The position numbers were made by a program, and so were the translations under genes. This document shows positions 692 through 61,482 of a DNA stretch of 64,000 bases, one piece after another (positions within the stretch are counted from its first letter, which is position 1; every line of letters starts with the position of its first letter). Source of the stretch: Candidatus Babeliales bacterium (GTDB taxonomy: Bacteria; Babelota; Babeliae; Babelales; JBFXEV01); the NCBI GenBank assembly GCA_050179755.1, contig JBFXEV010000001.1:1161994-1225993 (forward strand), given 5' to 3'. The notes below the pieces were generated by a model. The model was not told the origin of the DNA and did no database searches. It saw nothing but the letters and a program-made list of their open reading frames with translations.

Positions 692-2050
692 TTATTGCAT
701 GTCAATTAATGAAAACCATTTTTCAATTAAGAATGTAACCGTCTCAACGCGGCCATAATGCCAGGCTTCCATCAAAGGGGTTGCATTGCTATGGTTTTTA
801 GCTCCAATATCTGCGCCATGTAGCAGGAGTAGTTTAACTTTTGTGGTGTATCCATTTTTTGCAGCATTATGTAGCGGTGTATCATTAAGGGCATTTCTGG
901 TGGCACAATTAGCTCCACATTCTAAAAGTAATTGTAATGTTTCAATTTTTCCTCGTACAGATGCTGCACACTGCAATGGAGTTTCACCTTCTTTGTTTAT
1001 AGCTTCAATATCAGCCCCGTTTGCTAAAAGTAGTTTTATTGCTTCATTACGATGCATTATTGCTGCCCAATGCAACGGTGTATATTCGTCGTTATCTTTT
1101 GCTTCAATGTCAGCTTTGTGTGCTACGAGCAAGGCTGATATTTTAGGGTTTTTTATCTTTGAAGCCTCGTGCAGAGGGGTTAGTCCACAGCAATTTTTGG
1201 CTTCAATGTTAGCTCCTCTCCTGAGAAGTAATTGAGCAATTACTATCGCAGAAAGTTCAATTCCTTTATTGGCAAATAAGTGAGCAACTGATAGATCGAT
1301 AATAACTGCATGCAAAGGAGTTCGGCCATACTTATCTTGAGCTTCAATGTCAGCGTTATGTTCAAGAAGAAGGGCTGTCGTTTTAGAATTTGGTCCTGTT
1401 ACAGCCATATGGAGTGGCCTTTCGCCATCCTTATCTTGAGCTTCAATGTTAGCTTTATGTTCAAGAAGAAGGGCTGTCGTTCTAGGATTTGGTAATTTTG
1501 CAGCTTCATGGAGCGGGGTTCTTCCCTTGTTATCTCGAGCTTCAATGTCAGCTTTATATTCAAGTAGAAGGGCAGCCGTTCTAGGATTTGGTAACCTTAC
1601 AGCTTGGTGGAGTGGGGTTCTCTCATGCAAATCTTTAGATCCAATTTCAGCGCCACTTTGTAAAAGCCGCTGAACCACTTCTACTTTGCCGCAGGCGGCA
1701 GCTTTATGTAATGGTGTACTGCCGATATTATTTTTAGCTTCAATACATGCTCCATTTTCTATCAGAAGTCCAACAATCACTGCTGAGCTTTTAGGGGGAA
1801 TCAGAAATGCCAGATGTAAGGGTGTTGCGCCCAAACTATTTTGTGCATTAACATTAACACCTTCTTGTACAAGTTGTTGTACAGTCCTAACTTGTCCTGT
1901 GAGCACAGCAGCATGCAATTGCGTTGATGTTTCATCACGCCAATGGAGTGCTCTTTGTTGTTGTTCATAATAACTTATTTCCATACCGCTTGCTGTTAAC
2001 GCAATACAAAATATAGTGAGGGTGAGGATTTTATGATTAGTTAAGTTCAT
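692..2050 (-). CDS. Ankyrin-repeat protein (about 12 repeats) with N-terminal signal peptide
   Basis: Repeated G.TPLH.A...LL..GA.IEA.D motifs at 33-aa spacing; hydrophobic leader ending TASG|ME. Confidence 0.95.
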   Translation of the reverse strand: MNLTNHKILTLTIFCIALTASGMEISYYEQQQRALHWRDETSTQLHAAVLTGQVRTVQQLVQEGVNVNAQNSLGATPLHLAFLIPPKSSAVIVGLLIENGACIEAKNNIGSTPLHKAAACGKVEVVQRLLQSGAEIGSKDLHERTPLHQAVRLPNPRTAALLLEYKADIEARDNKGRTPLHEAAKLPNPRTTALLLEHKANIEAQDKDGERPLHMAVTGPNSKTTALLLEHNADIEAQDKYGRTPLHAVIIDLSVAHLFANKGIELSAIVIAQLLLRRGANIEAKNCCGLTPLHEASKIKNPKISALLVAHKADIEAKDNDEYTPLHWAAIMHRNEAIKLLLANGADIEAINKEGETPLQCAASVRGKIETLQLLLECGANCATRNALNDTPLHNAAKNGYTTKVKLLLLHGADIGAKNHSNATPLMEAWHYGRVETVTFLIEKWFSLIDMQ

Positions 2051-2051
2051 C

Positions 2052-2282
2052 TTATTCCTGGATAATTACACTCATTTTGTGTGAGATGCCGTTTCGTTTT
2101 TTAGATCTCTTTAACATTCTTAAAGTTTCTGGGCATGTCATATTGGTAGCAACCTTCAAAGCAGTACTGCTTTGTGTATGCAGCTCTCGCTGTGAAGGGG
2201 TAATAATAGCGAGCTGTGTCGATTGCAGTAAGCGAGCATAGAACAAAGAAGCAGTAAATAAAATGGACGCTATAGTTTTCAT
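2052..2282 (-). pseudogene. Short ORF, probably a degenerate duplicate of the 5' end of the oxygenase gene at 1..397
   Basis: IITPSQRELHT resembles IITLSHNELHT; the upstream promoter-like sequence is shared. Confidence 0.5.
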
Positions 2283-3047: not shown

Positions 3048-3638
3048 ATGATGAAAAATAGATCACTGTTTTTAGCCATAGCTCTTTTGATAAGCACGAA
3101 CGTATATTGTATGCAGCCAGCGTATGGAGTTGATTTTTGCACATGGTATAGGCCTGAGGTTTCTGATGCTAGATTACATTTTTATATTCCTGAAAACCCT
3201 GGATTAGTATGGACTGGTCAAGAGAAGAAATCGATCGATGTTCATGATGTCACTTTTTACCCAAAAGATAGCGGAAACTTAGTGGGGTTTAACGTTGATG
3301 GAACTGATCCTGATAAGATTGCCAAGCGCTATCCCATGCCACATGAGCTTGCAGAACAATTATTACGAGATGGTATGGGCATATACTGTAATGGGTATAG
3401 GCTTTTTGCACATGCTGCTTTTGGTCCGGGCGAAATTAAAATGACTGATGCTGCATATGTTTATATGGGACACAGAATGATTGCTCTAGCTTTGGCTTGG
3501 GGAGCAGATCCGCTTCATAATGTAGAAGCTGCAAAGAGTGCAATGAGCACTGCGTGGATAACTAGAAATGCACCATTAGTTCAGCTTTTGCTCAGTAAAA
3601 AGATACCAATACCTATTTGGGTAAGGAATAAAAGTTGA
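3048..3638 (+). CDS. Secreted hypothetical protein with ankyrin-like C-terminal helices
   Basis: Signal peptide ...STNVYC|MQ; RBS GAGGA before ATG 3048. Confidence 0.75.
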   Translation: MMKNRSLFLAIALLISTNVYCMQPAYGVDFCTWYRPEVSDARLHFYIPENPGLVWTGQEKKSIDVHDVTFYPKDSGNLVGFNVDGTDPDKIAKRYPMPHELAEQLLRDGMGIYCNGYRLFAHAAFGPGEIKMTDAAYVYMGHRMIALALAWGADPLHNVEAAKSAMSTAWITRNAPLVQLLLSKKIPIPIWVRNKS

Positions 3639-6460: not shown

Positions 6461-7141
6461 ATGGAAATAAAGAGAATGGTGGTAATGTTGGGTTTAATGC
6501 TCAACATAATAGGTCTTTTGGCACAGCCAACATATTATGAAATTTTAGGCGTGTCTAAAACTGCTTCTGAAAGTGATTTGAAAAAAGGGTATCGCAAAAA
6601 AGCTTTAGTGTTGCATCCTGATAAAATACAAGAGCGAACAGGAATGCCTGCTACATCTGAACAAACCAAGAAATTTCAGGAGTTAGTGGAAGCATATGAT
6701 GTACTTAAGGATCCTCTAAAGAAAAGAGAGTATGATATAAAGTTAGCCCAAGCAGCAAAGGCTTCATCAACACCAAAACCGCAATCAGCGCAACAGCAAT
6801 ATAAGCCTGCATCAAAACCGCAGCAGGCAACTGGGCCCAAGCCAGCACAATCACAGTATAAACCAACGCCAAAACCGCAAACAACTCAGCCTCAATATAA
6901 GCCTGCGCCAAAGCCACAGCCCACTCAACAACAATTTAAACCGATTCCAACGCAAGCACAAAAACCTCAAGTGCCTGCTGCAAAGCCAGCACCAGCAGCT
7001 GCAAAGTCGGCATTTAAACCAGCAGCCGCAAAAAAAGAGTATGATTTTTCGTGGTTAGAATCTGAAGATGAATCAGATGATTCTTTGAGCGCAGGCAATT
7101 CATCTGACGAATCAGATTATTCAGATGATGAAGATTACTAG
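6461..7141 (+). CDS. Signal-peptide J-domain (DnaJ-like) protein with P/Q/K-rich linker and acidic tail
   Basis: YYEILGV...LKKGYRKKALVLHPDK...FQELVEAYDVLKDP; repeats of QYKP(A/T)PKPQ. Confidence 0.9.
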   Translation: MEIKRMVVMLGLMLNIIGLLAQPTYYEILGVSKTASESDLKKGYRKKALVLHPDKIQERTGMPATSEQTKKFQELVEAYDVLKDPLKKREYDIKLAQAAKASSTPKPQSAQQQYKPASKPQQATGPKPAQSQYKPTPKPQTTQPQYKPAPKPQPTQQQFKPIPTQAQKPQVPAAKPAPAAAKSAFKPAAAKKEYDFSWLESEDESDDSLSAGNSSDESDYSDDEDY

Positions 7142-7597: not shown

Positions 7598-7715
7598 ATG
7601 GACCTCCTGAATCCTGGCTTCTATTCATATATTCAGTATATGAAATCAGGTGGTTTTGGTCAATGGCAAAAAATTAGCTTTTTTACAGGAGTTACGGTAA
7701 AATATGTAACGTAAT

Positions 7716-7792
7716 GCGCCTGTAGCTCAATTGGATAGAGTACCGGACTTCGAATCCGTTGGTTGTAGGTTCGACTCCTACCAGGCGCACCA
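7716..7792 (+). tRNA. tRNA-Arg (anticodon TCG)
   Basis: GCGCCTG acceptor stem, D-arm TAGCTCAATTGGATAGAG, loop CTTCGAA, GGTTCGACTCC T-arm, encoded CCA. Confidence 0.95.
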
Positions 7793-7895
7793 GGCTCCAC
7801 TCCTGACGGAGTTACGCCTGGCTGTTGCCAATCTTCGGATAAATTAATTTTATCAATAGAATGATTTTCTGGAGAGTGGTGACTGGCAAAGCCTG

Positions 7896-8016
7896 TTCTT
7901 CGAAGCTCGAAGAGCGAAGTAGAAGCCAGCATCTTTAATGGAGTTATTCAATAAGCTATTTGAAAATTGATTTTTTCGGCCAAGTATGCCCTTCGTAGCT
8001 TCAGCGTAGTAGGGCA
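7896..8016. repeat. Two REP-like imperfect palindromes (7896..7924 and 7987..8016)
   Basis: TTCTTCGAAGCTCGAAGAGCGAAGTAGAA and TGCCCTTCGTAGCTTCAGCGTAGTAGGGCA share CTTCGWAGCT...AGCGWAGTAG. Confidence 0.6.
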
Positions 8017-9165: not shown

Positions 9166-9242
9166 TGGTGCGCCCGACAGGATTTGAACCTGTGGCCTAA
9201 AGATTAGGAATCTTTCGCTCTATCCACCTGAGCTACGGGCGC
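9166..9242 (-). tRNA. tRNA-Arg (anticodon CCT)
   Basis: Reverse complement GCGCCCGTAGCTCAGGTGGATAGAGCGAAAGATTCCTAATCTTTAGGCCACAGGTTCAAATCCTGTCGGGCGCACCA. Confidence 0.95.
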
Positions 9243-11197: not shown

Positions 11198-12019
11198 ATG
11201 AATAGATCATTATTTGGGCAAATTGCCATAATCTTAAGTCTTTTGATAGTCTTTATTCCTGTTTCAGTTAAAAGCATGGATCAGCAAGGCGACTTGCAGG
11301 CCAGCTCTTCGTTAGTAAGTAAGCTTGCCGTGGTAACGCTTGTTCCTACAGCAGGATTTATGTATGTGATGCGTAGGCACTATAATGAATTACACGTACT
11401 TGAACGAAGTCTTGATCTTTCAACTATTGCAGCAAATGCCCGTGAAGGTAATTTCCGCTTTGCAACATGGCGGTCAACGCAAGATAATTGTATCGATGGA
11501 AAATGCTGGGCAACAGCGAGTGATGTTTGGCAAGACGGTAGAAATATAGCAGCTGTGCTTATGCGTGATGTAAAATATTTTGCTGATCGAGTATTTGTAT
11601 ATGACGCATTGAATTTGCGCCTTGATAATGCCAAAATTGAAAAACACGATTTACAAGCGGCAATAGCTCGAGAAAAGCAGTTGTTTGAAACTCAATTGAA
11701 CTTGGTCAGTCACTATACGAATGCTCCTTATCGTATTGTTGCTGCGCTTGCTCCAAATGATACACGATGTCTTACTCCTTCTGAACTTGCAATTAATTGC
11801 GCGTTAAAGTTAAAAGAAAGTGACGATGTTATCAATCAAGTTGAAAATGACTTAAAGCAGGAAGCAAGCTTTGTAAAAGAACTTATATATTTTGGCGGTT
11901 GGTTGCCAACTTCTTGGTCCATTGCGCCTTGTTCTCAAAAGGCATCGCGTTTATACATAAAATTATTTAGAGCGTACGCTCGTCTATGCGCACTCGAAGC
12001 AGCATTAAATCAAGAATAA
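11198..12019 (+). CDS. Secreted or membrane hypothetical protein
   Basis: Signal peptide ending VKS|MD followed by a second hydrophobic segment; RBS GGAGG. Confidence 0.7.
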   Translation: MNRSLFGQIAIILSLLIVFIPVSVKSMDQQGDLQASSSLVSKLAVVTLVPTAGFMYVMRRHYNELHVLERSLDLSTIAANAREGNFRFATWRSTQDNCIDGKCWATASDVWQDGRNIAAVLMRDVKYFADRVFVYDALNLRLDNAKIEKHDLQAAIAREKQLFETQLNLVSHYTNAPYRIVAALAPNDTRCLTPSELAINCALKLKESDDVINQVENDLKQEASFVKELIYFGGWLPTSWSIAPCSQKASRLYIKLFRAYARLCALEAALNQE

Positions 12020-17905: not shown

Positions 17906-19699
17906 ATGTATAAGCAAAGAATTAAATTAGGGTTATTGCTAAGTGCTTTATTCTTAGGATCTCTCTATGGCATGCAGCCAGCGTTAGAGAACTTGAAGGA
18001 TAGCTTAGATGATTTACGCAGAGAGTTAGGTGGAATACAACAGCCACATATTCAATTGCCCCCTCCAGTACTTCAAGGTGGACCAATAACACCAATTATT
18101 ACTGGTCCATTGCCGCCACCGCCTGTTGTGCAAGCTGGTGCTATTTCAACTCCATCAACTAAGACAGGTGCACCAGTATCTAAGTCTGGTCGTAAACCCG
18201 GATTAGGTGATGTAACTAATATTGGGTTTACGCCAATAGCAGGGTCAGATAAGCCGAAACAACCCGTTGCTTCGGGCATCGGTTTGAGCGCTGAACAACT
18301 TGAACAGCAACGTAAAGAACGGGAAGCGCGTTTGGCTGTAGCAAAGCAAAAGAAAGCTGCAGCGGGCGATATTACAAAAGGTTTTATAACAGCAGCATTT
18401 GCAACATATCCAGTATCAGCGACGGTTCCTGCACCAATTGCTACAAAAGATTTTGGGGTTGAGCGTGAAGCGGTAAATGCAATAAATATTAAATCAGATA
18501 CCATTCTAAATCAACTTAAAAGCAATTTGTTTACGCAAGATGATAAAAGGGAACGGCAACCACTAGCTAAAAAGTTATTGAATGGCTTATTATTCTTTAC
18601 AAGAAATAATGTAGTACAGCCTGATCAAATTAAGCAAATTGCCGATCTAGTGGTACTCATCTTAAATATTGATCCATTATTGATTACTACAGCGGATGCA
18701 GTGTTGCGGCAACTTGGTTTTGATGACGTGGCAATACACCGGCTAATGACGCTGTTTTTTGAAGAACGTATTAGATTTATACAAGAGACATTAGAAGAGC
18801 TAAAAAAACAAGCAACAGAAGGTGCAATTCAAGATATTGATCAAGCATTTGCTTACTCAATTGCGTTATCAAGTGAGTTAATACGCCAAGAAAGTATAGT
18901 GCTTGATGAGCATACTACTGCAGCACAAAAGCAAGAAGCACAATGGTTTATTGATAAAGTGCGAGAATTGCGCAAAAGGTTGTGTGAGATTATCACTGCG
19001 CCTGATAACATTGTACTTTTTAATACAAAGCCGGCGCTCAAAGAGCTCTATCTTACGATATGTGGTGCACAGCAGAAGGCAAAATTACGTGTATATTGTG
19101 TTACTGCCGCATACACATATGGAAAGACGCTTGAAGGTAAGCGAAAAGGTAGAGATTATACCTATTGTGGTTTTGATCAAGAAATACAAAAGATCATGGA
19201 TGAAATTAAGAAATTCAATGCATTAGAAGAAAGTGAAATGTCAGTAAGTCAGCGTGTATACACCGTGCAAACAATTATTAGTTCACTTGCTGACATTAAT
19301 ACGTTCTTTACCAATCCTGATGTTTGTCCAAACTGCTTGAGAGAGGCAATTCGTTTTGGGCATCCAAAAGTATTAACTGTTAGTCAAGTGGAAGAACCAT
19401 TTAAAATGCAACTTGCCCAAATTGCAGATTTTTTATTGGCTATGAACAAGCGTGATAATAGTTTTTATTTAGAAAACTTTGTAAGAACTGGTATTCCTAA
19501 TATAAAAACGACTCTTGATCGCGTGAGAAAGTTGAGTGATAAAGAATCAGCAATGATTTACGGCTTGATTGGCATAAATCGTGTGGCAAAAGAAAAGAAT
19601 CTAGGGCCATACAATCTTGATGATTTTCTTCATGGCCGTATTCCACAGTGGTTAATACAAGAGAAAGAAAGAAGAAGAATGCAAGCATTATCTGTATAG
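17906..19699 (+). CDS. Secreted hypothetical protein with Pro-rich region and helical C-terminus
   Basis: Signal peptide ending LYG|MQ; LPPPV/LPPPPV segments; 597-aa ORF. Confidence 0.75.
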   Translation: MYKQRIKLGLLLSALFLGSLYGMQPALENLKDSLDDLRRELGGIQQPHIQLPPPVLQGGPITPIITGPLPPPPVVQAGAISTPSTKTGAPVSKSGRKPGLGDVTNIGFTPIAGSDKPKQPVASGIGLSAEQLEQQRKEREARLAVAKQKKAAAGDITKGFITAAFATYPVSATVPAPIATKDFGVEREAVNAINIKSDTILNQLKSNLFTQDDKRERQPLAKKLLNGLLFFTRNNVVQPDQIKQIADLVVLILNIDPLLITTADAVLRQLGFDDVAIHRLMTLFFEERIRFIQETLEELKKQATEGAIQDIDQAFAYSIALSSELIRQESIVLDEHTTAAQKQEAQWFIDKVRELRKRLCEIITAPDNIVLFNTKPALKELYLTICGAQQKAKLRVYCVTAAYTYGKTLEGKRKGRDYTYCGFDQEIQKIMDEIKKFNALEESEMSVSQRVYTVQTIISSLADINTFFTNPDVCPNCLREAIRFGHPKVLTVSQVEEPFKMQLAQIADFLLAMNKRDNSFYLENFVRTGIPNIKTTLDRVRKLSDKESAMIYGLIGINRVAKEKNLGPYNLDDFLHGRIPQWLIQEKERRRMQALSV

Positions 19700-34701: not shown

Positions 34702-35013
34702 ATGAAGTTGCTAAAAATACTTATAGTTGTTGGCGTATGCATGTTGTATGGTTATTCAATGCAATGTATGTTTGCGCACAATGAAGACTTATGCATATCA
34801 GAATGTAGTTACGTATATGAGCCGCTAGCAGAGTATCAAGAAATAGGTGACTACTGTGATTTTGGGTATGAGTATCAGCCAGCTTATAGAACGCGCACCG
34901 GGCAGGTTTATTATCAGTTCCCGCATTATAATGGCGGCGGTGCTGATTTTGGCTGTGAATATGATACCTATAATTATGGTCGCGGCAGTGAATATTACCA
35001 AGATTGTTGGTAG
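34702..35013 (+). CDS. Small secreted Tyr/Cys/acidic protein
   Basis: Signal peptide; very high Tyr content; 6 bp after the previous gene. Confidence 0.65.
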   Translation: MKLLKILIVVGVCMLYGYSMQCMFAHNEDLCISECSYVYEPLAEYQEIGDYCDFGYEYQPAYRTRTGQVYYQFPHYNGGGADFGCEYDTYNYGRGSEYYQDCW

Positions 35014-38994: not shown

Positions 38995-39114
38995 GTTGTC
39001 TTGCAATTAATGCACGCGTTAGGGTAGGGTGATAAATGATGGAAAAAAAAACAAGGAATGTGTATGTGGTGTATAGTAGTAGCATTGATGTGCTTTGCAG
39101 GAGAGGGTGCAGTA

Positions 39115-39708: not shown

Positions 39709-40436
39709 TGCGTATAACGTTTAGGGGAACTCGTGGCAATATTAAAGTGCGCTCAAAAGCGCATTATCGCCATACTGTGACCGAATTTGCATTTAGGAAT
39801 ACTAAGATTCTTATTGATTGCGGCCTTGATTGGTTATCACATGCCAAGAAATTGAGAGCAGACGCTTTGTTTGTTTCACACGCGCATCCTGATCATGTAG
39901 GCGGGCTTAAACGTGGTGTGCCATTTCCGGTGTATGCTACACAAGAAAGTTGGGATATTTTGGCAAATTATAAAATTGATGAACGTATTCTAATAAAGCC
40001 ACAACAGCCAATTTCTATTGGATCACTAATTGTTGAAGCTTTTTACGTAGAGCATTCATTTAATGCGCCAGCAATAGGTTATCGCATTAGTGCGGGCAAA
40101 ACTATTGTATTTTATGTTCCTGATGTTGCAAAAATTGTACATCCCCAAAAAGCATTATCTGGTGTGGATCTTTATATTGGTGACGGCGCAATAATTACAC
40201 GCACGTTATTGCTAAGAGAAAGCGACGGCATCATGCATGGTCATGCGCCTATTCTGGAGCAACTTGCGTGGTGCAAAAAGTATAAAGTGCCGCGCGCTAT
40301 TTTTACCCATTGCGGTACCGAGATAACTTTACAAGATTTTGGTAACATGCAAGAAATAATTCAAAAGCTTGGTGATGAATATGGCGTAGAAACGCAACTT
40401 GCATATGATGGATTAATTATCCCCAGATTATCTTGA
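39708..40436 (+). CDS. Metallo-beta-lactamase-fold hydrolase (PhnP/RNase Z/PqqB-like)
   Basis: LIDCG, SHAHPDHVGG, VEHS, GH, FTHCG; TAATG overlap with the upstream gene. Confidence 0.88.
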   Translation: MRITFRGTRGNIKVRSKAHYRHTVTEFAFRNTKILIDCGLDWLSHAKKLRADALFVSHAHPDHVGGLKRGVPFPVYATQESWDILANYKIDERILIKPQQPISIGSLIVEAFYVEHSFNAPAIGYRISAGKTIVFYVPDVAKIVHPQKALSGVDLYIGDGAIITRTLLLRESDGIMHGHAPILEQLAWCKKYKVPRAIFTHCGTEITLQDFGNMQEIIQKLGDEYGVETQLAYDGLIIPRLS

Positions 40437-41232
40437 TACAGTCGGCATTAGTTAGGTTTTCAAAATTATTTCTTATGCCTTTGCCGCGCAATATTTCAGC
40501 TACTTCAGGCGCTCGAGCGCGTAAAATGCCTGCTGAAAAATTTATTAAATCATTACCAAATTGTGTACCATTTCGAATTTCGTCAGGTGTTATTTTGAAA
40601 TAACAATATGATTTTAAAAGGGCAAGTAGATCGAGATGAGCTAAATGTTCTTGGAGAGCGTTGCGATTAAAAGTTGTCTTGGTGAATGTTGGCGGCAAAT
40701 CAGTCCAGATTACTGCGGTGTAATTATGAGCTTGCGCCCAAGCCATTATGCGCTGAAGCATTGGATTTTGTTGATAGTAGTTATCACCAATTTGTCCTTT
40801 CTTGACCTCAATTGCTCCCGTATTGCCATTAAAATCTTTTCTACGATACGTTCTATTTAGTAGATTGATATAGCCAATGTTATCTGCGATTGTGCCTTCA
40901 CGTTCGCGCAAAGCAGCTATGGCATCATTTACATTATTACCATTAAATGTAGCAAAATAAGATTTTAATTCGCGCGCATTGATGCCGGGAGCAACCACTA
41001 GTGTTAAACGTCCATCATTGCTTTTCCGTGCATACTCAATACGCATGCCGGGGCCTTGTTGGCCATTGGATTTAAATCCATCTCGTTCTTTCAGTGGCAA
41101 ATTTCCAGGATTTTCTACTAAGGACCCAAATGCTAATATTGCAATGCGTTGGCCTGGTGCGTCCATGGCATTGGTTATATGTGTTTGCAGAAAGATAAAA
41201 CTAATCAAGGTGATTAATAGTTTATTTTTCAT
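40417..41232 (-). CDS. Secreted protein with a gamma-glutamylcyclotransferase-like N-terminal motif
   Basis: Signal ending TNA|MD; ILAFGSL, R.S.DGRLTLV, LREREG. Confidence 0.6.
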   Translation of the reverse strand: MKNKLLITLISFIFLQTHITNAMDAPGQRIAILAFGSLVENPGNLPLKERDGFKSNGQQGPGMRIEYARKSNDGRLTLVVAPGINARELKSYFATFNGNNVNDAIAALREREGTIADNIGYINLLNRTYRRKDFNGNTGAIEVKKGQIGDNYYQQNPMLQRIMAWAQAHNYTAVIWTDLPPTFTKTTFNRNALQEHLAHLDLLALLKSYCYFKITPDEIRNGTQFGNDLINFSAGILRARAPEVAEILRGKGIRNNFENLTNADCIKIIWG

Positions 41233-43063: not shown

Positions 43064-44590
43064 ATGAAATTCCATTCATACTTACCTGTTTTAGTAGTAT
43101 TCATAAGCGCTCATTTTATACTCAATGCAATGGAGCCAGAAACTCTTACTGTGCATACCAAGCGCTTTGGTAAGGCAATTAGCTTTACACGCCCTGCGCT
43201 TAGTGGTTTGGATCAAAAATTATGGCCGGTTGTCTTTTCAGGTTGTAGAGCAAAAAATGAAAGGCAACGAGCTGCAGTGGTAAGCATGTTAGAAAAATTA
43301 ATAACTCAAGGCGCTAATCTCAACGGTCAATATGTTATAACTAACGATGATGAAACTGCTGCACAAGTTGGTTTAGAGCAAGCTGGCTTTACACCGCTTG
43401 AATGTTCAATTGTGGCAGGTAATGTTCAATTTTCACGTGATTTGTTGAAGTTGGGTGCTCGTGTTGATGCTCCTTCTGATATGAATTCGGCGCTACATGC
43501 TGCAGCACTTAATAGTAATGCACGAGTTGTTCCAGAACTTCTTGCTCGTGGCGCAGATGTTAATTTCCGCGACATGTGGGGGCAATCAGCAATATTTAAT
43601 GCAGTTTACAATAAAGACCATGCAATCTTTGATGCGTTAGCTAAAGATCCCTCACTTGAATGTGATGTTCCTGATAATCATGGCCAAACAGCATTGCATT
43701 ATGCCGTATTAGTGCAGGATCCCTCTCTTGTTATGATTAGTAAATTGCTTGCGCGCGGCGCAAGTCCGCACAAAGAAGATCGCTTAGGGTGTTCTCCCCT
43801 TGGATACGCTCGCTTGGCAGGCAATAAGCCAGTTGTAGATATGCTTGAAGGTAAAGTAGCTCAAGATGGATGGCTTGCAGGAACGGTTACTGCAGATTCT
43901 TATAAAGCTAAGCAAAAAAAACGTGAAACTTCTGGTGCCAAGAGACAAACAAATAAATCAAAGAAAAAGGCTAATGAGTTAAAGAGATCAACTTCGGGTG
44001 TGCAAATTGAGCCGATTTCTCCTACTAAGAAAATTAGAGAAGCGTTGCAAGGGGTCACGCTTGGTTCACCGCGTGTTTTATTTAATCAAACTAGTGACGC
44101 AGTAGAAGAGGTAGAAACCTTACAACCAGAACAACATAACTTTATTGAGCTTACATTTGATGCGCGCGTAACAGATTGGTTTGATGAAACATTTTTAAAT
44201 GAAGAAAAAGAAAAGTCTACATCGCATTTGCAGCTTGCTCGTTCGATTTATTATCACCAAATTCCTCAAGACGTAATTCGTTGTGTAATGCAACATGGCA
44301 AGCGCGAACCTTATGAGAGTCAGACGCGCAAAGATAGTGGAACTACATGGTATTTAAGAGGCAACATGATATTCGAAAATGCTTATGAAAATCCATGGCA
44401 ACAAGGTAAAGGTAATCAGCCAGGTTGGTATCACTGCACCATGGATTCACGCGGCGTGATATATCATGTTGGTTTTGATGTTATAAAAGAAAGTGCGCCC
44501 TTGCTTTCTGCATTCTTGCCAAAAGGTATTACTAAAGAAGTTACTTATCCTGGTGCACTAGCAGGTATTAGCCATCAGTTTGTATTATAA
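43064..44590 (+). CDS. Ankyrin-repeat protein with Lys-rich linker and uncharacterised C-terminal domain
   Basis: Signal ending LNA|ME; GFTPLE, SALHAA, GQTALHYA, GCSPLGYA. Confidence 0.88.
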   Translation: MKFHSYLPVLVVFISAHFILNAMEPETLTVHTKRFGKAISFTRPALSGLDQKLWPVVFSGCRAKNERQRAAVVSMLEKLITQGANLNGQYVITNDDETAAQVGLEQAGFTPLECSIVAGNVQFSRDLLKLGARVDAPSDMNSALHAAALNSNARVVPELLARGADVNFRDMWGQSAIFNAVYNKDHAIFDALAKDPSLECDVPDNHGQTALHYAVLVQDPSLVMISKLLARGASPHKEDRLGCSPLGYARLAGNKPVVDMLEGKVAQDGWLAGTVTADSYKAKQKKRETSGAKRQTNKSKKKANELKRSTSGVQIEPISPTKKIREALQGVTLGSPRVLFNQTSDAVEEVETLQPEQHNFIELTFDARVTDWFDETFLNEEKEKSTSHLQLARSIYYHQIPQDVIRCVMQHGKREPYESQTRKDSGTTWYLRGNMIFENAYENPWQQGKGNQPGWYHCTMDSRGVIYHVGFDVIKESAPLLSAFLPKGITKEVTYPGALAGISHQFVL

Positions 44591-51768: not shown

Positions 51769-52494
51769 CTATTCTGAATCCTCTTGTGAGTCTTCATTTC
51801 CTGCCAATTCCTTTTGTGCACGGCGTAATTCCATTAACATATTTGTTCTGCTTAGTGCTGCCGTAGCGGGTGAGTCTTTTTCTTGTGCATCATGTACTTC
51901 TTTTCTGAACATTAATGGCGTTGCTTCAATAGCAGCAGTTAAACATGCTATCATGTCCTCATTTTTTTTTGCCTTTGCGTAATCGAGTGGCGTATTATTG
52001 GCATTATCGTTTGCCTCTTTATCGGCTCCAAAACTCACGAGTGCTTTGGCAATTGTATTTTGTCCGCGAATAACAGCTTCATGCAGGGCAGTCATGCCCA
52101 TACTGTTAGTAGCATCAAGAGCATCAACTTGTGCTGCTTGCACCATAAGAAAATGAGCAATTTTCCCGCGTGCGCGCGAGCTGCCATCATGTGCTGCAAA
52201 ATGCAAGGCTGTTTGCCCTAGTGGTCCTGCCATAGTAAGGCTTGCGTTATGTTGTGTCACTAGCGCTTTTACTGTCTTAAGTTTGCCGGCAATTACCGCT
52301 ATCATAAGTGGCGTGTGCCCTGTAGCATTAAGAGCATCTATTGCTTTTGCATCTTTACTCTGTGCTAAATACTGGCTGATACCATTTAAATCTCCCATTC
52401 TTGCAGCTTCGTGTAATGCAAAATCACTTTGCATGCTATAAAGGGAAAAGACATTCATAAAAAATACAAAGGAAAGCATTATATTTATTTTCAT
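51769..52494 (-). CDS. Secreted ankyrin-repeat protein
   Basis: Signal ending LYS|MQ; GHTPLMIA, GQTALHFA, GMTALHEA, NTPLDYA. Confidence 0.92.
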   Translation of the reverse strand: MKINIMLSFVFFMNVFSLYSMQSDFALHEAARMGDLNGISQYLAQSKDAKAIDALNATGHTPLMIAVIAGKLKTVKALVTQHNASLTMAGPLGQTALHFAAHDGSSRARGKIAHFLMVQAAQVDALDATNSMGMTALHEAVIRGQNTIAKALVSFGADKEANDNANNTPLDYAKAKKNEDMIACLTAAIEATPLMFRKEVHDAQEKDSPATAALSRTNMLMELRRAQKELAGNEDSQEDSE

Positions 52495-55020: not shown

Positions 55021-55410
55021 ATGTTTAGTAGTAATTTTACCATAAACCGCTTGTGTAAGCAAAGACAAGCATTTGCTTGCCCAGGATTTCTTTGTATTGA
55101 ATTGCTTCAAGGGTTATTGCTTCTGAGCGTGCTACTGTTGCTTATGAGCGCTTTTCATGTGCTCAGTGTGTATACACAAGAGCAAACGGTGCAACGCTTG
55201 CAAGCATTAGATTATATTGCAAGTGAATTGGTAGGCGCGCATAACATGCCGCAAGATAATGCAATGCGCGTGACGTATAAAGAACACGAGTGTCACGTTA
55301 TAGAGTTTGCTCACATAATGCAAAAGCCGGTATACGTTGTGCAAAAAGAGGTTAAAGCCATGTGGCATGATTCGCGCGGCAAATTGCATAGCATTCGAGT
55401 GGTATCATGA
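55021..55410 (+). CDS. Prepilin-like protein (PilV/GspI-like)
   Basis: PG|FLCIELLQGLLLLSVLLL: Gly-Phe cleavage site, Glu at +5, hydrophobic helix. Confidence 0.6.
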   Translation: MFSSNFTINRLCKQRQAFACPGFLCIELLQGLLLLSVLLLLMSAFHVLSVYTQEQTVQRLQALDYIASELVGAHNMPQDNAMRVTYKEHECHVIEFAHIMQKPVYVVQKEVKAMWHDSRGKLHSIRVVS

Positions 55411-55919
55411 ATAAGCATGTACGTGTTGGTTTTTTTATGACAGAGTTTTTGTTGTATCTTGCTTTGAGCGCATGCTCGGCAATTTTTATTATGCGGTATA
55501 TTTATGGTACGTCAATGCGATTACGCGCAACCACGTTGCAAACTGATCGCATAGCTTCACTTGCTAGTGCACTTGATGCGATTTGCAATGATGTGGTGCA
55601 TGCTCCATGCGCCGTGCATGAATGGCGCACGCTCAATGATCATGAACTTGCTTGGCAACATGGCAACGTGCGTATTGGATGGAAGCTGGAAGACGGTAGC
55701 TTTAAAAGAACGCAACAAACTTATAATTTGCGTAAACAAAAGTGGAAGCGGCAGGTCACGCACATTGCAGTAGAAGACGTTGATGCGGTACAGTATATTC
55801 CGCAGTATCAAGGCAACGCCTTGCGTTTAATGACGATAAAACTTTGTGGCAAGGTGGCGGTTGGTAAAACACATTGTATTGAACGTTCGGTTTTATTACA
55901 ACAAAATGTGGTGATATGA
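55407..55919 (+). CDS. Prepilin-like protein (PilW/GspJ-like)
   Basis: VG|FFMTEFLLYLAL; ATGA overlap with the upstream gene. Confidence 0.65.
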   Translation: MNKHVRVGFFMTEFLLYLALSACSAIFIMRYIYGTSMRLRATTLQTDRIASLASALDAICNDVVHAPCAVHEWRTLNDHELAWQHGNVRIGWKLEDGSFKRTQQTYNLRKQKWKRQVTHIAVEDVDAVQYIPQYQGNALRLMTIKLCGKVAVGKTHCIERSVLLQQNVVI

Positions 55920-56338
55920 AGCAAAATCACCCGCAGCAGGGCTCAATGATGTTGCTTGTTGTGGTACTTATGAGTATACTTTTAGTTTTATGTACGCGTA
56001 TGTGGCGATCAACTGCATATAGTGTTGATATTGCAGTGCAAAAACAAATTCATATGCAAAAAAAATGGGCAGTGCAAGGTATATTGAACTGTGGTATAGA
56101 GGCATGTAAAATTGATTTTGAAGCTTTGTATGCAAGAGTAGAAGAACAGGGCGGTGAGCTTACGGTGCCCATTACTTCATATGCCTTTGATGTGCCGCAC
56201 GTTGCACATCTAACTTTTTTATTAACATTTAAAGCGAGCAAACTTAATACATTAGATCTAACGGCACAAATTCTGGAAGATAAAAAACTGATTATACAAA
56301 CATCAACAATTGTTTCTAGAACAAGTATTGTCGCATAA
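55916..56338 (+). CDS. Prepilin-like protein (PilX/GspK-like)
   Basis: QQG|SMMLLVVVLMSILLVL without Glu+5, as in PilX/GspK; ATGA overlap. Confidence 0.65.
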   Translation: MKQNHPQQGSMMLLVVVLMSILLVLCTRMWRSTAYSVDIAVQKQIHMQKKWAVQGILNCGIEACKIDFEALYARVEEQGGELTVPITSYAFDVPHVAHLTFLLTFKASKLNTLDLTAQILEDKKLIIQTSTIVSRTSIVA

Positions 56339-56441: not shown

Positions 56442-57002
56442 ATGAATAAGAACTACAAAAAAGTTAAAATGTTAGCTGTTTTATTATTGGGGGGATTTTG
56501 TTTTTCTGCTTATGCAATGAATTCAGAAGAAATTGTTCAAGAATCTCCCTATCAGAAATTAATGAATTCTGCTTGTCAAAATGACAATGATGCTGTTACA
56601 GCATTGTTAGCTCAACATCCAGAGTTAGCAAAAGAAGCTACCTCTACTAACCAAGGAATTGATCCACTTAGATGGGCAGCACATCACGGCAATGTAGATA
56701 TGGCGAAACTATTATTGGCTAAAGGATTTACCTTAAGAAAATCAAATGATGGTGCAACAGCATTTCACTCTGCAGCTTATGAAAAACATCATGAAGTTTT
56801 GGCATTGCTCTTAGATCAAGCAGATGCGTCAGCATTAACAACATTGCTTGCTTCTAAAGCTAAAATTAATCATTTATATTTGACACCTTATGAAGCTGCT
56901 TGTGATCGTATTAATAATCCTTGCGCAGAGTTGCTTGAGCCTAGTGCTGTGCAACAGAGAATCGATGTGCGTGGTGCGCTTGCAGCGGAAAATGCAGAAT
57001 AA
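56442..57002 (+). CDS. Secreted ankyrin-repeat protein
   Basis: Signal ending AYA|MN; PLRWAAHHG, ATAFHSAA, LTPYEAA; ATG 56442 preferred over 56403. Confidence 0.85.
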   Translation: MNKNYKKVKMLAVLLLGGFCFSAYAMNSEEIVQESPYQKLMNSACQNDNDAVTALLAQHPELAKEATSTNQGIDPLRWAAHHGNVDMAKLLLAKGFTLRKSNDGATAFHSAAYEKHHEVLALLLDQADASALTTLLASKAKINHLYLTPYEAACDRINNPCAELLEPSAVQQRIDVRGALAAENAE

Positions 57003-57072: not shown

Positions 57073-58611
57073 ATGAAGAAAAGAATAAGTTTACGCCATC
57101 TTATTTCTATATATTGCCTTGTATATATGCCACTTACTCTTGCTATGGATAGAACAAAAAAGGCACTGATGTTAAAAAAAGTTGGCGAACATGCTCAGCA
57201 TACAACCAATACGTTGCAAATGACGTTGCCAACTTCAGCGCAACCAGAGATAAGCGATTTGCGAGAAGTAAAAGTTTTTAGATTGGTGCGTTATGTTGGA
57301 ACACTTGCTGATGCAATCAATCAATCTCAAGATGGTCAAGGAGTTACTTGCCTTGCAGATAAAATGAGATTGGTGGAAAAGTTGCGCGGCCTTGGGGTAA
57401 CGCAAAATGATGCAGTCGCATTAGACCAAATTGAGCAAGACGTATTGCATGAAGTAGAATCAACACTTATTACTTCAGTTGAAGAAGCGCTTAATTTCAT
57501 ATCTCAAGAATTTGGGGTAGAATTTTCTGATGCAAGTGAAAGCCAAACAGAATTGAACTCTCACAGTACTGAATCTCCAGCACCAAGAGTGATGCGGCAC
57601 AAACCTTTAATTATACAAAAAAAGGATACTCAAATATATAAAGCGCTTGCATCAGGTAATCCTGCTACGCTACAAGAGCTTCTTGCAGGCGGTAATACTC
57701 CTGAATTAGACCCTAAAAGATGTACTATTGAGGGTGGCAATGGCGATACGCCGTTATTTTGGGTGCTTGATCCTGAGCTTAAAATTTCTACACAAGCAAG
57801 AAAAGAGATGATTGACTTGCTTTTGGCAGAACGTGTGAGTATTGCCAAAGTTAATGATAATGGTCACACCGTAGTGCATGAGGCGATCTTGAGTGAGCAT
57901 CCCGAAGTTGCTGCATTGTTTCCTTATTTATTTGAAAAAGAAATGACTGAAGGTCTTATTAACCTTCAAGGTCAAACGCCGCTCCATGTGGCAGTTGCAC
58001 AAGGCCTAGTTGATAAAGTGCAGTATATTCTTTCATTGCGCACATCTGCGTTGGAGGAACCTGATTTTGAAAATCAAACGCCGTTACAAGTAGCTTTCAA
58101 TAAACATTTGCCTTCAAAAGATAAATTGGTGATAGCGCATGCATTAATTGAAGCAGGAGCTAATATGGAAGTTACTAATGCAGAAGGCGTGCCACTCATT
58201 TTTGATGTAGTCAATCGGGTAGATCTTGCGGGTGTAGAATTACTTCTCGGGCATGGGGCAAATTGCAGGAGTGTTAATTTACAAAATCATACGTTGTTGG
58301 AATTTGCTCAAGCAAAAATTGGCAAAACAGAAAAACCAGAAGTTGCCCAAAGAATATATGATGTTATAAAGGAATATGTTGAGGGTAAAAGGTTGCCAAG
58401 CTTTTTAAAAGTTGAGGCATCAAAATCGGCTGCTGCAAGCCCTTATGTGAGCATTACTGTTCCTGCAAGCTTACAAGGTCAAGTTGATATGCAAAAATTT
58501 AGAGAAAATATTATACGTGCTTTTGTAACACCGGGCCAAGATGGTGCTTCGTTACTGCAAAAAATGTTAGTTGCATCATTGAATGAAAATAAGGAAGAAT
58601 CACATGAATAA
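57073..58611 (+). CDS. Secreted ankyrin-repeat protein
   Basis: Signal ending TLA|MD; GDTPLF, GHTVVHEA, GQTPLHVA. Confidence 0.9.
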   Translation: MKKRISLRHLISIYCLVYMPLTLAMDRTKKALMLKKVGEHAQHTTNTLQMTLPTSAQPEISDLREVKVFRLVRYVGTLADAINQSQDGQGVTCLADKMRLVEKLRGLGVTQNDAVALDQIEQDVLHEVESTLITSVEEALNFISQEFGVEFSDASESQTELNSHSTESPAPRVMRHKPLIIQKKDTQIYKALASGNPATLQELLAGGNTPELDPKRCTIEGGNGDTPLFWVLDPELKISTQARKEMIDLLLAERVSIAKVNDNGHTVVHEAILSEHPEVAALFPYLFEKEMTEGLINLQGQTPLHVAVAQGLVDKVQYILSLRTSALEEPDFENQTPLQVAFNKHLPSKDKLVIAHALIEAGANMEVTNAEGVPLIFDVVNRVDLAGVELLLGHGANCRSVNLQNHTLLEFAQAKIGKTEKPEVAQRIYDVIKEYVEGKRLPSFLKVEASKSAAASPYVSITVPASLQGQVDMQKFRENIIRAFVTPGQDGASLLQKMLVASLNENKEESHE

Positions 58612-59353
58612 ATTTTATCTGCGTTTTTTTGTTCTTTCTGCTGCACTCTGTCCTTTACTGCTTTGTGCAATGGACGCAAGCATAGTATCACCTGAGAAAG
58701 CTGTGCCACCATCAGACATAGAAAGGCCTATAGCTTTTCCTCTTCATAGAGCTATTGCACAAGGCTTTATTACTGAATCCAGATTATTAGTGGATCATAA
58801 TTCACCTCTTGAACTCCGTGATGCTGATGGGCATACGCCACTGCAAGTTGTTTTTAATTCTCATTTGAATTCGCACACGCGTATTGTTCTTGCCAGTATA
58901 TTGATTGAAGCAGGAGCGAGCATGGAAGTCTTGGATGCCGAAAAATCACCACTTCTTTTTTCTTTAATTAAAAAAGTAAATTTAGATGGTGTTAGGTTAT
59001 TGCTTGGGTATGGTGTGAATCTTAGAAGTACTAATTTCCAAGGCAGAATGCCGTTAATATACGCAGATGAAAAAGTTAATACGTCTGAAAATCCTAAAAC
59101 AGAAGAAATATCAGATTTAATTGCACAGTATTTGGACGGAAAACGTAAACCTGAATTTGCGCATCTTATACAAACGCAAGCAGAGCGAGCGCGTTTATGT
59201 GCAGCAGCGCATCAAAGCGTGCTTGCTGCGTTACGGCAACAACGTGAAGTATTGGAAGAGCAAATGCGGTTGCGCCAAGCAGAAGCAGAACATCTTGCCA
59301 TGTTAGAAAAGAGTTTGCATTCCTCTGTTGATGAATCTGAATCAAAAAACTAG
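58604..59353 (+). CDS. Secreted ankyrin-repeat protein with C-terminal coiled coil
   Basis: Signal ending LCA|MD; PLHRA, GHTPLQV; paralog of the upstream gene. Confidence 0.88.
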   Translation: MNKFYLRFFVLSAALCPLLLCAMDASIVSPEKAVPPSDIERPIAFPLHRAIAQGFITESRLLVDHNSPLELRDADGHTPLQVVFNSHLNSHTRIVLASILIEAGASMEVLDAEKSPLLFSLIKKVNLDGVRLLLGYGVNLRSTNFQGRMPLIYADEKVNTSENPKTEEISDLIAQYLDGKRKPEFAHLIQTQAERARLCAAAHQSVLAALRQQREVLEEQMRLRQAEAEHLAMLEKSLHSSVDESESKN

Positions 59354-59427
59354 CTTGAAAGATGCAGTAACAAAAGCTACAATTGATCCAAACTAATAAC
59401 TCATCACACACTAGCAAAGGATCAATT

Positions 59428-61482
59428 ATGCTTAAGCATGTTTCAGTTTTTATCATTTCTTTGGCTGCGTTTTTGCCCAATACGTTCTATGCAATGGATC
59501 CTATAGAAATAGCAACGCCTGTCCCACAACCAACTTTGCAGCGCACTCAATCGTTACCAAATCGTAAACTACAGCACATGCCAAGTGTGTTAGATTTACA
59601 TCAATATGAACTTGATGAAGGTAACGAGCAGCAAAGGCAAGCACACGCTGTAACGGTAGCAAGGCAAACACAAGAGCGTCTTAATCGTATGTTCCATGAT
59701 GCCGTTGGTTTGGCTACCGGAGAAAAACCATTGGGAGTTCATGATGAAAGGCATGTGAGCAAACAATTTGCACGAGCGCGTGAACTGCTTGCCCGCGGTG
59801 CAGATAGTAAGTGGGGGTATCCGCTTGCTCATTTTCTTGTAGCATGTAAGTTGCAAGAAGAAGGCCATTGTTGCGAAGTATCTCTAGATCGTGATTTTGG
59901 TGTTCCAGTGCGGGTAACCAATTATTCTACGCGCAAAGTGCAAAATCCTATGCTTTACGGGCAAGCTCATGAATTTCTTGCGTGGCTTGTTGATAATGGC
60001 GCAGACGTTAATCAAGCATGGCCGCAAGACCGTGTTGATGGTTTTACGCATGTTGATGCTCGCGGTGATGAATGTAAATCTAACGTTGTAGCAAAAGCAA
60101 CGGGCATTGTGCCGTTAGCCTATGCATTGCAATTGTGCCGTGAAGGCTGCTGTGTGCAAAAATTGCTTGATGCAGGAGCACAACCCTATAAAGGTGCATT
60201 ATATTATGCATTTCATTCGGCAAATCCATCTGCTGCTTTATTGTTACTTGAAGCAGGTGCAGCGATTGATGAGTTAGATAATCAAGGCAATGGCGCCGCT
60301 CATTGGGCGCTTGCTTTGCATAGCCCAAAATTGCGGCTTGCGGCGCTTAAAGCTTTGCAAGAACGAGGAGCTTCCTTTTCTGTGCCAAATAAAGCGCGTC
60401 ACACTCCCTTGCATATGGCAGTATTTGGTGAATTGGTTAATGAAAATGGTCATACTTATTGGCGAGATATATTAAAAGATGATGCAAGCTGTTTAGCATT
60501 TTTGCTTGAACATGAGCCAGCTCTTAATGCAAAAGGTGCGCAAGGCGTTACTGCTTTGTATGCTGCAGTAGATATGCCAAGCGTGTTTTATGCTGAAAAT
60601 CTTGCGAGCATTTCTCATTCTTTAGCCCGATTTCAAAATGATGTTCCTGCTGGGCAAGCGCTTGCACAATTATGGAAAGATAAAAAGTCTTACGACTTTT
60701 TTGCACAAAATAATGCCATGGTTGCTTTGTTATTAGCAGCAAAGGCTGATACATCAATTGCTCAAAAGGATGGGTTTACGCCAATTCATCGAGCGGCACA
60801 ACGCGGCATGGCAGAATGCGTGCGCTTACTTATAGCGGCTGAGGCTTTGGTAGACGCACAGGATAAAGAGTTTTTAACGGCTTTGCATCACGTGGCAGTA
60901 GCTAAGATTCCTTATGCAGAAAAAGCACAAATTATTAAGTATCTTACCGAGGCAGGAGCAAGCACGGAAGCTATTGATAAAGAAGGTAATACTGCGCTTA
61001 TAAGGGCAGCCATTGCTGGTGATGTTGATGGAGTTTCGTTGTTACTAGGATTTGGTGCTCGCGTTGATGCACGTAATTATAGTATGTTTACAGCAGCTGA
61101 AATGGTTAGATCAAAAGAGTGTGGTTACAAGCGTTATGAAGATATTTTGAAGCTGCTTGCAGACTATGCTCAAGGCAAAAGAAAACCACATTCAAGAGAT
61201 GGTAAACCTTTTGTGGATATTGCAGAAGGTGCAACGAGTCCTGAACAGGTAGGTGATACGTTGGGTAATAATGAATGGCCTGTAGAAGAACAAAGAGCTG
61301 CTGAACTACAACTATTAACTCGTGCACTTGCGCGTATGGAGCGTGAAAAAGTTGCTGCGCACATGCCAACGCCAGAAGAAAAAGCGCTTAGAGATGCAGA
61401 AATACATGCTTTGCGTCAAGCCAAAAAGATTATTGAGGGGGAAAAGGCAACATCAACAGCGTTCCCAAGTGTGAGGGTTTAG
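59428..61482 (+). CDS. Secreted ankyrin-repeat protein
   Basis: Signal ending FYA|MD; HTPLHMA, GFTPIHRA, GNTALIRA. Confidence 0.9.
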   Translation: MLKHVSVFIISLAAFLPNTFYAMDPIEIATPVPQPTLQRTQSLPNRKLQHMPSVLDLHQYELDEGNEQQRQAHAVTVARQTQERLNRMFHDAVGLATGEKPLGVHDERHVSKQFARARELLARGADSKWGYPLAHFLVACKLQEEGHCCEVSLDRDFGVPVRVTNYSTRKVQNPMLYGQAHEFLAWLVDNGADVNQAWPQDRVDGFTHVDARGDECKSNVVAKATGIVPLAYALQLCREGCCVQKLLDAGAQPYKGALYYAFHSANPSAALLLLEAGAAIDELDNQGNGAAHWALALHSPKLRLAALKALQERGASFSVPNKARHTPLHMAVFGELVNENGHTYWRDILKDDASCLAFLLEHEPALNAKGAQGVTALYAAVDMPSVFYAENLASISHSLARFQNDVPAGQALAQLWKDKKSYDFFAQNNAMVALLLAAKADTSIAQKDGFTPIHRAAQRGMAECVRLLIAAEALVDAQDKEFLTALHHVAVAKIPYAEKAQIIKYLTEAGASTEAIDKEGNTALIRAAIAGDVDGVSLLLGFGARVDARNYSMFTAAEMVRSKECGYKRYEDILKLLADYAQGKRKPHSRDGKPFVDIAEGATSPEQVGDTLGNNEWPVEEQRAAELQLLTRALARMEREKVAAHMPTPEEKALRDAEIHALRQAKKIIEGEKATSTAFPSVRV

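Follow-up and report, generated by a model that had tools for sequence, protein, structure and literature searches.

Methionine followed by an acidic or amide residue at predicted signal peptidase sites of a Dependentiae genome: a candidate rule for the mature N-termini of exported ankyrin and orphan proteins

The stretch of DNA analysed here, 64,000 nucleotides from contig JBFXEV010000001.1 of a Candidatus Babeliales bacterium and referred to as the window, raises the question of why so many of its predicted exported proteins should begin, once the signal peptide has been removed, with methionine followed by aspartate, glutamate, glutamine or asparagine (Met-[D/E/Q/N], occupying positions +1 and +2 relative to the cleavage site). 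The window belongs to a Dependentiae (TM6) genome and the lifestyle is that of a parasite of protists. Dependentiae export nearly half of their proteins via the general secretory (Sec) pathway and, to our knowledge, nobody knows how those directed to the host are told apart from those of the envelope. A preliminary description of the window listed 11 genes with such a site and proposed that the motif was either an effector tag or a form of mimicry directed at the host enzyme NatB. The answer favoured here, with a confidence that falls somewhat short of even, is that a +1/+2 rule restricted to this lineage and maintained by selection operates at signal peptidase I sites in a subset of the Sec-exported proteins.

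Enrichment of the dipeptide and the genes that carry it

All cleavage sites considered here are rule-of-thumb predictions from sequence, and two methods were used to place them. Under method 1 a protein had to combine a charged n-region with a hydrophobic core free of charges, the residues at both -1 and -3 had to be small, and the site with the best hydrophobic-to-polar contrast was chosen; the scoring is blind to the identity of the +1 residue, and the method is noisy, with many membrane anchors among the control open reading frames (ORFs). Method 2 took the first small-X-[DEQN] tripeptide following the N-terminal hydrophobic stretch and the identity of X was tallied. The window was compared with eight Dependentiae loci (L001-L008) as relatives and with 72 loci from unrelated phyla (L009-L080) as controls. 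The window DnaB is 63-73% identical to that of eight TM6/Dependentiae loci (one from the Chromulinivoraceae) and 42-49% identical to all others, and in a DnaB tree the window and L001-L008 form one group with a support of 100/100.

With method 1, Met occupied +1 in 10 of the 44 signal-like ORFs of the window and 8 of the 47 from the relatives, compared to 2 of 157 in the controls (Fisher p = 4.9e-6 for the window and 1.5e-4 for the relatives). The control rate of 1.3% agrees with the earlier statement that Met is rare at +1 of bacterial signal peptides, whilst in the window it was the most frequent residue at that position (10/44, with Gln at 3/44). A stricter method 1 score gave 5/30, 6/29 and 1/103 for window, relatives and controls, respectively, and with method 2 X was Met in 12/30, 6/35 and 4/96. 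When a profile was drawn from -10 to +20 over the 91 proteins of the window and relatives, 18 Met residues were found at +1 and between 0 and 6 at each of the other positions.

The residue that follows is also restricted, being D, E, Q or N in 16 of the 18 Met-class cases (binomial p = 2e-8 against 25%). The two exceptions were one Met-Pro and one Met-Val, the latter on a pseudopilin-like protein of L008 where the site is probably false. The background frequency of these four residues was 7/34 for the second residues of non-signal proteins, 174/910 for residues following an internal Met and 18/73 at +2 of non-Met signal peptides. A hand count over the window, the relatives and the homologues described below gave D/E/Q/N at +2 in 28 of 31 Met-class examples, with Pro, His and Ala as exceptions. 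The Met-[D/E/Q/N] dipeptide is enriched at exactly +1/+2, and the earlier view that the motif is real and non-random is borne out by the excess of +1 Met over the controls by both methods.

The trait is unevenly distributed among the relatives. In L001, L002 and L004 Met was found at +1 in 7 of 20 signal-like ORFs, with D/E/Q/N next in 6 of the 20; the corresponding figures for L003 and L005-L008 were 1/27, a doubtful Met-Val, and 0/27. The trait cannot be assigned to a clade, since the inner branches of the DnaB tree are unresolved and the samples are small. Orthologue comparison matched no secreted protein of the window in L001-L008, housekeeping genes alone being matched.

All 11 genes of the preliminary description were recovered, with starts at 2050 (-), 3048, 11198, 17906, 41232 (-), 43064, 52494 (-), 56442, 57073, 58604 and 59428, and a twelfth, gene 34702..35013 (+) with Ser|Met-Gln, can be added to them. 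In each of the 12 the n-region is positively charged, the hydrophobic core bears no charge and the -1 residue is small, with Met at +1 and Asp, Glu, Gln or Asn at +2. The signal-coding segments, each including the codons for the dipeptide, are as follows.

1979..2050 (-): 22-residue signal peptide, Met at 1984..1982, Glu at +2, Gly at -1; ankyrin gene 692..2050 (Ank, Pfam E = 1.8e-70)
3048..3116 (+): 21-residue signal peptide, Met at 3111, Gln at +2, Cys at -1, Tyr at -2; orphan gene (ORFan) 3048..3638
11198..11281 (+): 26-residue signal peptide, Met at 11276, Asp at +2; gene 11198..12019, no family match
17906..17977 (+): 22-residue signal peptide, Met at 17972, Gln at +2; gene 17906..19699
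34702..34764 (+): 19-residue signal peptide, Met at 34759, Gln at +2; small Cys-rich gene 34702..35013, no family match
41161..41232 (-): 22-residue signal peptide, Met at 41166..41164, Asp at +2; gene 40417..41232, distant ChaC/gamma-glutamylcyclotransferase-like fold
43064..43135 (+): 22-residue signal peptide, Met at 43130, Glu at +2; ankyrin gene 43064..44590
52429..52494 (-): 20-residue signal peptide, Met at 52434..52432, Gln at +2; ankyrin gene 51769..52494
56442..56522 (+): 25-residue signal peptide, Met at 56517, Asn at +2; ankyrin gene 56442..57002
57073..57150 (+): 24-residue signal peptide, Met at 57145, Asp at +2; ankyrin gene 57073..58611
58604..58675 (+): 22-residue signal peptide, Met at 58670, Asp at +2; ankyrin gene 58604..59353
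59428..59499 (+): 22-residue signal peptide, Met at 59494, Asp at +2; ankyrin gene 59428..61482

The features of a Sec-type class I signal (n-region charge, a core of at least about 8 residues, a position within the first ~40) are present in 12/12, and the -1 residue is small throughout (Ala in six, Ser in three, Gly in two and Cys in one). Ten of the 12 sites were recovered by method 1, which picked an earlier site in the 51769 and 59428 genes; in the 51769 protein that site lies 3 residues before the Met, and the first ankyrin repeat starts 4 residues past the Met. The Met-Gln of the 17906 protein is followed by a conserved amphipathic helix and a Pro-rich linker. A word-indexed homologue search with the 3048 protein returned that protein alone. 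A lipoprotein (signal peptidase II) signal was ruled out because +1 is Met and not Cys in 12/12 (lipobox candidates in the window are found at 24509 and 42477), as was a prepilin-type class III signal, because the hydrophobic segment precedes the cut and there is no Glu +5 pattern. Tyr at -2 occurs in 6/12 in the window but in few Met-class examples from the relatives, and was dropped as a part of the motif.

The carriers of the motif in the window include every ankyrin protein, several ORFans and the ChaC-like enzyme; in full they are the seven ankyrin proteins and the products of the 3048, 11198, 34702, 17906 and 40417 genes. It had been stated that 7 of 8 ankyrin proteins had the motif, and whilst their possession of it stands, at 7/7, the count of eight does not, as a Pfam scan covering 59 ORFs of the window finds seven. 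The bias towards this class, with classes assigned by eye, is 7/7 ankyrin proteins versus 5/28 other signal-like proteins (Fisher p = 1.2e-4). The cell-wall enzymes, namely an amidase (14679), a C39 peptidase (13498) and a protein with a weak NlpC/P60 match (12081), were said to lack the motif and do so, and the association with effector-like proteins rather than with cell-wall enzymes holds. Other +1 residues are found on a chagasin-type inhibitor, a J-domain protein and hydrolases. The Met-class proteins of the relatives are mostly without a family match, the exception being one of two tandem HtrA-like paralogues in L002 (11635-13173 and 13438-14976), of which one has Ser|Met-Gln and the other Ala|Gln-Glu, with the residues that follow aligning.

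Several other window proteins have signal-like N-termini. A J-domain (DnaJ, E = 8e-21) directly follows the predicted signal peptide at 6461-7141 (+), which may possibly encode an exported J-domain protein that manipulates host Hsp70. Hydrophobic signal-like N-termini are also found on domains that are normally cytoplasmic, namely a LigD 3'-phosphoesterase (39058-39708, +), a thioredoxin reductase fused to thioredoxin (29069-30523, +) and an AAA protein in which part of an M41 protease domain is present (25740-28391, -). The signal-peptide protein at 46370-47644 (+) has pretoxin-HINT and Ntox37 domains and is followed by an 88-residue ORF without a family match (47654-47920, +); the two together resemble a polymorphic toxin and, possibly, its immunity gene. 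Beside the ankyrin cluster there are three small ORFs (55021-56338, +) with N-termini that appear prepilin-like by eye (Gly, then a hydrophobic segment with Glu), and weak homologues of these sit in the same position upstream of rplI-dnaB in L002 and L008. Their identification as pseudopilins found no support in Pfam.

The remaining gene content of the window comprises dnaA, dnaB, rplI, ileS, pgk, a murD-like gene and ftsW, together with many small exported proteins. G+C content varies between 38% and 44% and GC skew is positive throughout, in every 4-kb bin, with a monotonic cumulative rise over the 64 kb and no switch at dnaA (15934-17325, +, GTG start). There are genes for tRNA-Arg(TCG) at 7716-7792 and tRNA-Arg(CCT) at 9166-9242 (-), and a 90-residue ORF at 7660-7932 (-) is spurious because it overlaps the former. 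The ileS homologue of L002 (1977-4834) is broken up into four ORFs, which correspond in turn to consecutive portions of the window IleRS, and is either a pseudogene or the product of frameshift errors in the assembly.

Behaviour of the dipeptide within protein families

The 40417 family has seven signal-bearing members which are 48-70% identical and have very different signal peptides, and small|Met-Asp/Glu/Gln is present in five of the seven. The dipeptide has persisted while the signal peptides of these orthologues diverged. Homologues from other organisms are shorter, have no signal peptide and start 4-5 residues downstream of the +1 Met. The 40417 protein itself found no family match in Pfam, NCBIfam or a PDB profile search. 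The five best fold matches to its structural model, which has a predicted local distance difference test (pLDDT) score of 92.5, are all ChaC-type glutathione-specific gamma-glutamylcyclotransferases, these matches being weak (E = 0.008-0.04, template modelling (TM) scores 0.33-0.53, none at E <= 0.001).

The 17906 family, in which the leader is conserved at the protein level down to ~30% identity, gave 17 matches, of which P0059, P0062 and P0064 were left out as lacking the N-terminal region. Small|Met is present in 7 of 15 N-termini, and the eight with other residues, which are distant members, are all signal-bearing; in these the Met column, which is one of the heptad positions of the conserved helix that follows the signal peptide, is occupied by Leu, Ile or Val. 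Since the non-Met members already bear signal peptides, Met must have arisen by substitution inside an exported protein. The same Met/Ile correspondence was seen by eye in an ankyrin trio (P0034, P0035 and P0041). The dipeptide has thus arisen in place in proteins that were already secreted. In P0060, a distant member of the 17906 family, a short stretch after a poly-Pro tract resembles by eye a WH2 actin-binding motif; no such stretch was seen by eye in the window 17906 protein.

In two members of the 40417 family, P0003 and P0004, the usual short leader has been replaced by that of the 17906 family, consisting of signal peptide, Met/Leu-Gln, amphipathic helix and Pro-rich linker. Residues 17-59 of P0003 and 1-57 of P0004 match the N-termini of the window 17906 protein and P0051, with 60% identity over 43 residues (E = 3e-13). 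Because a leader is common to two unrelated cargo families, leaders have been exchanged between genes in the lineage. In P0003 the Met-Gln adjoins the signal peptide even though a linker of ~35 residues precedes the domain, and Met-Gln moves with the signal peptide and not with the cargo.

Possible purpose and rival explanations

The use to which such a rule might be put can be set out as a series of steps. The signal peptide would direct transport across the inner membrane, with cleavage by signal peptidase after the small -1 residue, leaving a protein that begins Met-[D/E/Q/N] and a mature N-terminus on which selection could act. The carriers would end in the host cytoplasm, where the first two residues would decide their fate. 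A small residue after Met permits removal of the Met, and would do so if placed at +2, a bulky hydrophobic residue there would create a Met-hydrophobic degron, and Lys and Arg, which hinder Sec export when near the cleavage site, would do so at +2. Given Met at +1, D/E/Q/N would be found at +2 because small, bulky hydrophobic and Lys/Arg residues are excluded by these three constraints, and the set that they leave is therefore necessarily the NatB substrate set too; a NatB-type N-terminus is predicted for 12/12 of the window genes. The outcome would be a stable N-terminus resembling that of a host-translated protein, one that retains its Met and is ignored by the host degradation systems, or else a sorting tag. 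Taken as a whole, the idea of a two-residue code that marks Sec-exported effectors, either for handover to export across the outer membrane or by giving them the host's own type of N-terminus as seen by Met aminopeptidase, N-recognins and possibly NatB, is a possibility that should be entertained only tentatively.

The suggestion of NatB mimicry is mechanistically the weakest part of the preliminary description. NatB acts on nascent chains at the ribosome and we know of no post-translational action by it, and acetylation is doubtful because it would take place at the host ribosome whilst the carriers are made in the bacterium. Retention of Met in front of an acidic or amide residue, with escape from the N-recognins, fits better and agrees with peptide pull-downs in which unacetylated Met-hydrophobic peptides bound UBR4-KCMF1 and UBR2 and a Met-Glu peptide was impaired in binding (10.1101/2022.09.01.505523). 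If the carriers do reach the cytoplasm there would be a precedent for an encounter between host N-terminal surveillance and a residue left by signal peptidase in BiP, the N-terminal Glu of which is left by signal peptide cleavage and is arginylated on escape to the cytosol (PMC8037982).

A number of considerations weigh against a selected rule serving this purpose. Avoidance of degrons does not explain the Met itself, because Ala, Ser, Gly and Thr at +1 are also classically stabilising and suit signal peptidase better. The destination of the carriers is an assumption and the site at which they are cut is a prediction from a crude rule, and although the -3 residue is canonical (Ala, Val, Thr or Gly) in 7/12 it is by eye Leu or Phe in 5/12. 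About a third of the signal-like window proteins follow the rule, and among the relatives the trait is patchy, in small samples. The two members of the 40417 family without Met have Leu-Gln and Ala-Glu, and Met has been lost from them without obvious harm. Some of the carriers do not look like cytosolic effectors, to judge from the HtrA of L002 and from the 11198 protein, which has a second hydrophobic segment downstream of its signal peptide. Since the choice of Met over Ala or Ser is not accounted for, two further readings, that of a sorting tag and that of a preference of the peptidase, stay alive.

According to the first of these, the Met-[D/E/Q/N] dipeptide, once exposed, would be recognised in the periplasm and would label a protein as cargo for type II secretion or vesicles, keeping host-directed proteins apart from residents of the envelope. 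A simple linear tag would suit hundreds of unrelated and fast-evolving cargoes, and it has been reported that some 44% of Dependentiae proteins have signal peptides with the type II system as apparently the sole one present (PMC6561590, PMC4378268). It is in keeping with this that all seven ankyrin proteins have the motif and that the amidase, the C39 peptidase and the NlpC/P60-like enzyme lack it, and also that two unrelated cargo families have a whole leader in common. However, two residues would offer a receptor, for which no candidate has been identified, very little to go by, and Met-[DEQN] was absent from all 27 signal-like ORFs of L003 and L005-L008, though members of the phylum should have their secretion machinery in common; Ser is at +1 in an ankyrin protein of L006. 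Furthermore, the authors of the Q-rule, discussed below, found no sorting role for the +1 residue in Bacteroidetes (PMC5837995). On balance a sorting tag seems rather unlikely.

If instead a changed or second signal peptidase I were to favour Met at P1' and a polar residue at P2', no function after cleavage would be needed. The excess of Met lies exactly at the predicted scissile bond, the trait is restricted to some lineages among the relatives, and the -1 residue is Ala at 6/12 Met-class sites compared to 22/23 other window sites, a count made by eye in which the choice of non-Met sites is biased to Ala. Such a preference leaves the bias towards ankyrin proteins and ORFans unexplained, and signal peptidase I accepts nearly every residue but Pro at +1. 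There is no peptidase S26 gene among the 59 window ORFs scanned with Pfam. A peptidase preference alone is considered quite improbable.

Signal peptides might also have been added upstream of complete genes, such as eukaryotic ankyrin genes, with the old initiator Met surviving at the junction. The motif is found chiefly on eukaryote-like and orphan genes. The mature 51769 ankyrin protein, for which a homologue search gave no close relatives, starts within ~3 residues of the point where fungal gankyrin-like homologues without a signal peptide have their initiator Met, and these homologues begin Met-Asp or Met-Gln. Diatom plastid proteins most often start with Met, Ala or Ser after transit-peptide cleavage (PMC3774753), although that their Met is a relic start codon is our own inference and not a statement of that paper. 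Against this, the Met of the 17906 family replaced Leu, Ile or Val in proteins that were signal-bearing, as by eye did that of the ankyrin trio; the signal-less 40417 homologues begin 4-5 residues past the +1 Met; in P0003 Met-Gln stays at the signal peptide and away from the domain; D/E/Q/N at +2 is far more frequent (16/18) than among real second residues (7/34); and so sharp a fixation at +1 would not be expected. A relic start codon was thus ruled out as a general cause by the three alignments and the +2 composition, and is very improbable as the explanation of the trait, but because of the 51769 protein it may hold for some single ankyrin genes. Nor is there a recently copied signal cassette, as the best pairwise local nucleotide score among the 12 signal-coding segments was 15, compared to maxima of 11-16 in 30 codon shuffles. 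The earlier alternative, that signal cassettes had been fused to intact genes, fares poorly on both counts, with no shared cassette and with start-codon ancestry contradicted in the 40417 and 17906 families.

Scarcely credible is the other alternative raised in the preliminary description, that the ATG after the signal peptide also initiates translation and yields a cytoplasmic copy beside the exported one, which would suit a codon that is always ATG, and the Leu-to-Met change between P0004 and P0003 in the 17906 leader that would make a start codon, but would leave the absence of small residues at +2 unaccounted for and is contradicted by the ribosome-binding site check proposed at the time. 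Pairing with the anti-Shine-Dalgarno sequence averaged -4.75 kcal/mol over 60 true starts, whereas the 12 internal ATGs averaged +0.57 (p = 5e-6 versus true starts) and 380 other in-frame ATGs -1.71, and local RNA folding was -7.5 for the 12, -8.0 for ordinary internal ATGs and -4.6 for true starts, so that neither a Shine-Dalgarno sequence nor relaxed RNA structure is present. By eye, AGGA, GGAG or AAGG lies at the usual distance from 11 of the 12 upstream starts and from none of the 12 internal ATGs; in the 692..2050 gene, for example, AGGA is found 5' of the true start and nothing comparable precedes the internal ATG. The +1 Met codons carry no translation-start signals, and the ordinary explanations of the motif are largely excluded.

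Comparison with known systems

The ankyrin effectors of other Dependentiae, Babela and Chromulinavorax, come from the same phylum and likewise have a signal peptide leading directly into ankyrin repeats. Of the 126 ankyrin proteins of Babela, 79 carry a signal peptide and are described as being released into the cytoplasm of the amoeba, the only secretion system detected being of type II (PMC4378268); in Chromulinavorax the proportion with a signal peptide is 78% of the ankyrin proteins (PMC6561590). In both cases it has been assumed that the host cytoplasm is reached via Sec and type II secretion, and signal-peptide counts alone are reported (PMC4378268; PMC6561590). The word "methionine" occurs 0 times in the Chromulinavorax paper (PMC6561590), and no description of +1 Met was found in the literature on Dependentiae/TM6/Babela secretion, subscription journals and supplements being outside the scope of the search. 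A tag that is found on every ankyrin protein and is absent from the cell-wall enzymes would provide a testable handle on the sorting of exported proteins, and a cheap predictor of effectors for uncultured genomes. Were the two-residue effector code to hold, host-directed proteins could be recognised from sequence alone.

With the N-terminal classes of eukaryotes the rule has in common a +2 set identical to the NatB substrate set, on N-termini that keep their Met and are not bound by UBR-type recognins (10.1101/2022.09.01.505523; PMC8037982). Those classes act on the products of host ribosomes, whereas here the N-terminus would come from a bacterial peptidase. If the reading in terms of stability in the host is correct, bacterial Sec export would be linked to eukaryotic N-terminal quality control.

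There are also codes in which one to a few exposed residues decide the next transport step after cleavage, such as the +2 rule of Escherichia coli lipoproteins, the acidic export signal of Bacteroidetes surface lipoproteins and the +1 aromatic residue of diatom and complex-plastid pre-sequences. These differ from the present case in that they involve a lipidated Cys or eukaryotic plastid import. We know of no receptor or second-step dependence for Met-[D/E/Q/N], nor of any modifying partner enzyme for a Met rule, and a Pfam scan of the 59 window ORFs gave no match to glutaminyl cyclase or another modifying enzyme.

Glutaminyl cyclase is the partner in what is, by analogy, the closest known system, the Q-rule of the Bacteroidetes, in which Gln is found at +1 of most signal peptidase I substrates and is cyclised to pyroglutamate (PMC5837995; PMC10653852). 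The role that has been demonstrated for it is in the stability of the exported protein and not in sorting (PMC5837995; PMC10653852), and the abstract of the mBio paper describes it as exclusive to Bacteroidetes. In both, a single residue directly following the signal peptidase I cleavage site is preferred within a particular lineage, in addition to the general A-x-A rule. In the present case, however, the preference is for Met with a polar +2 residue and not for Gln, it affects about a third of the signal-like proteins and not the majority, and it is biased to ankyrin and orphan proteins and patchy in the phylum. If the rule proposed here is correct, lineage-specific selection on the residue that signal peptidase exposes would extend beyond the Bacteroidetes, and a two-residue code marking effectors would be the second lineage-wide +1 rule after the Q-rule and the first to be tied to effectors.

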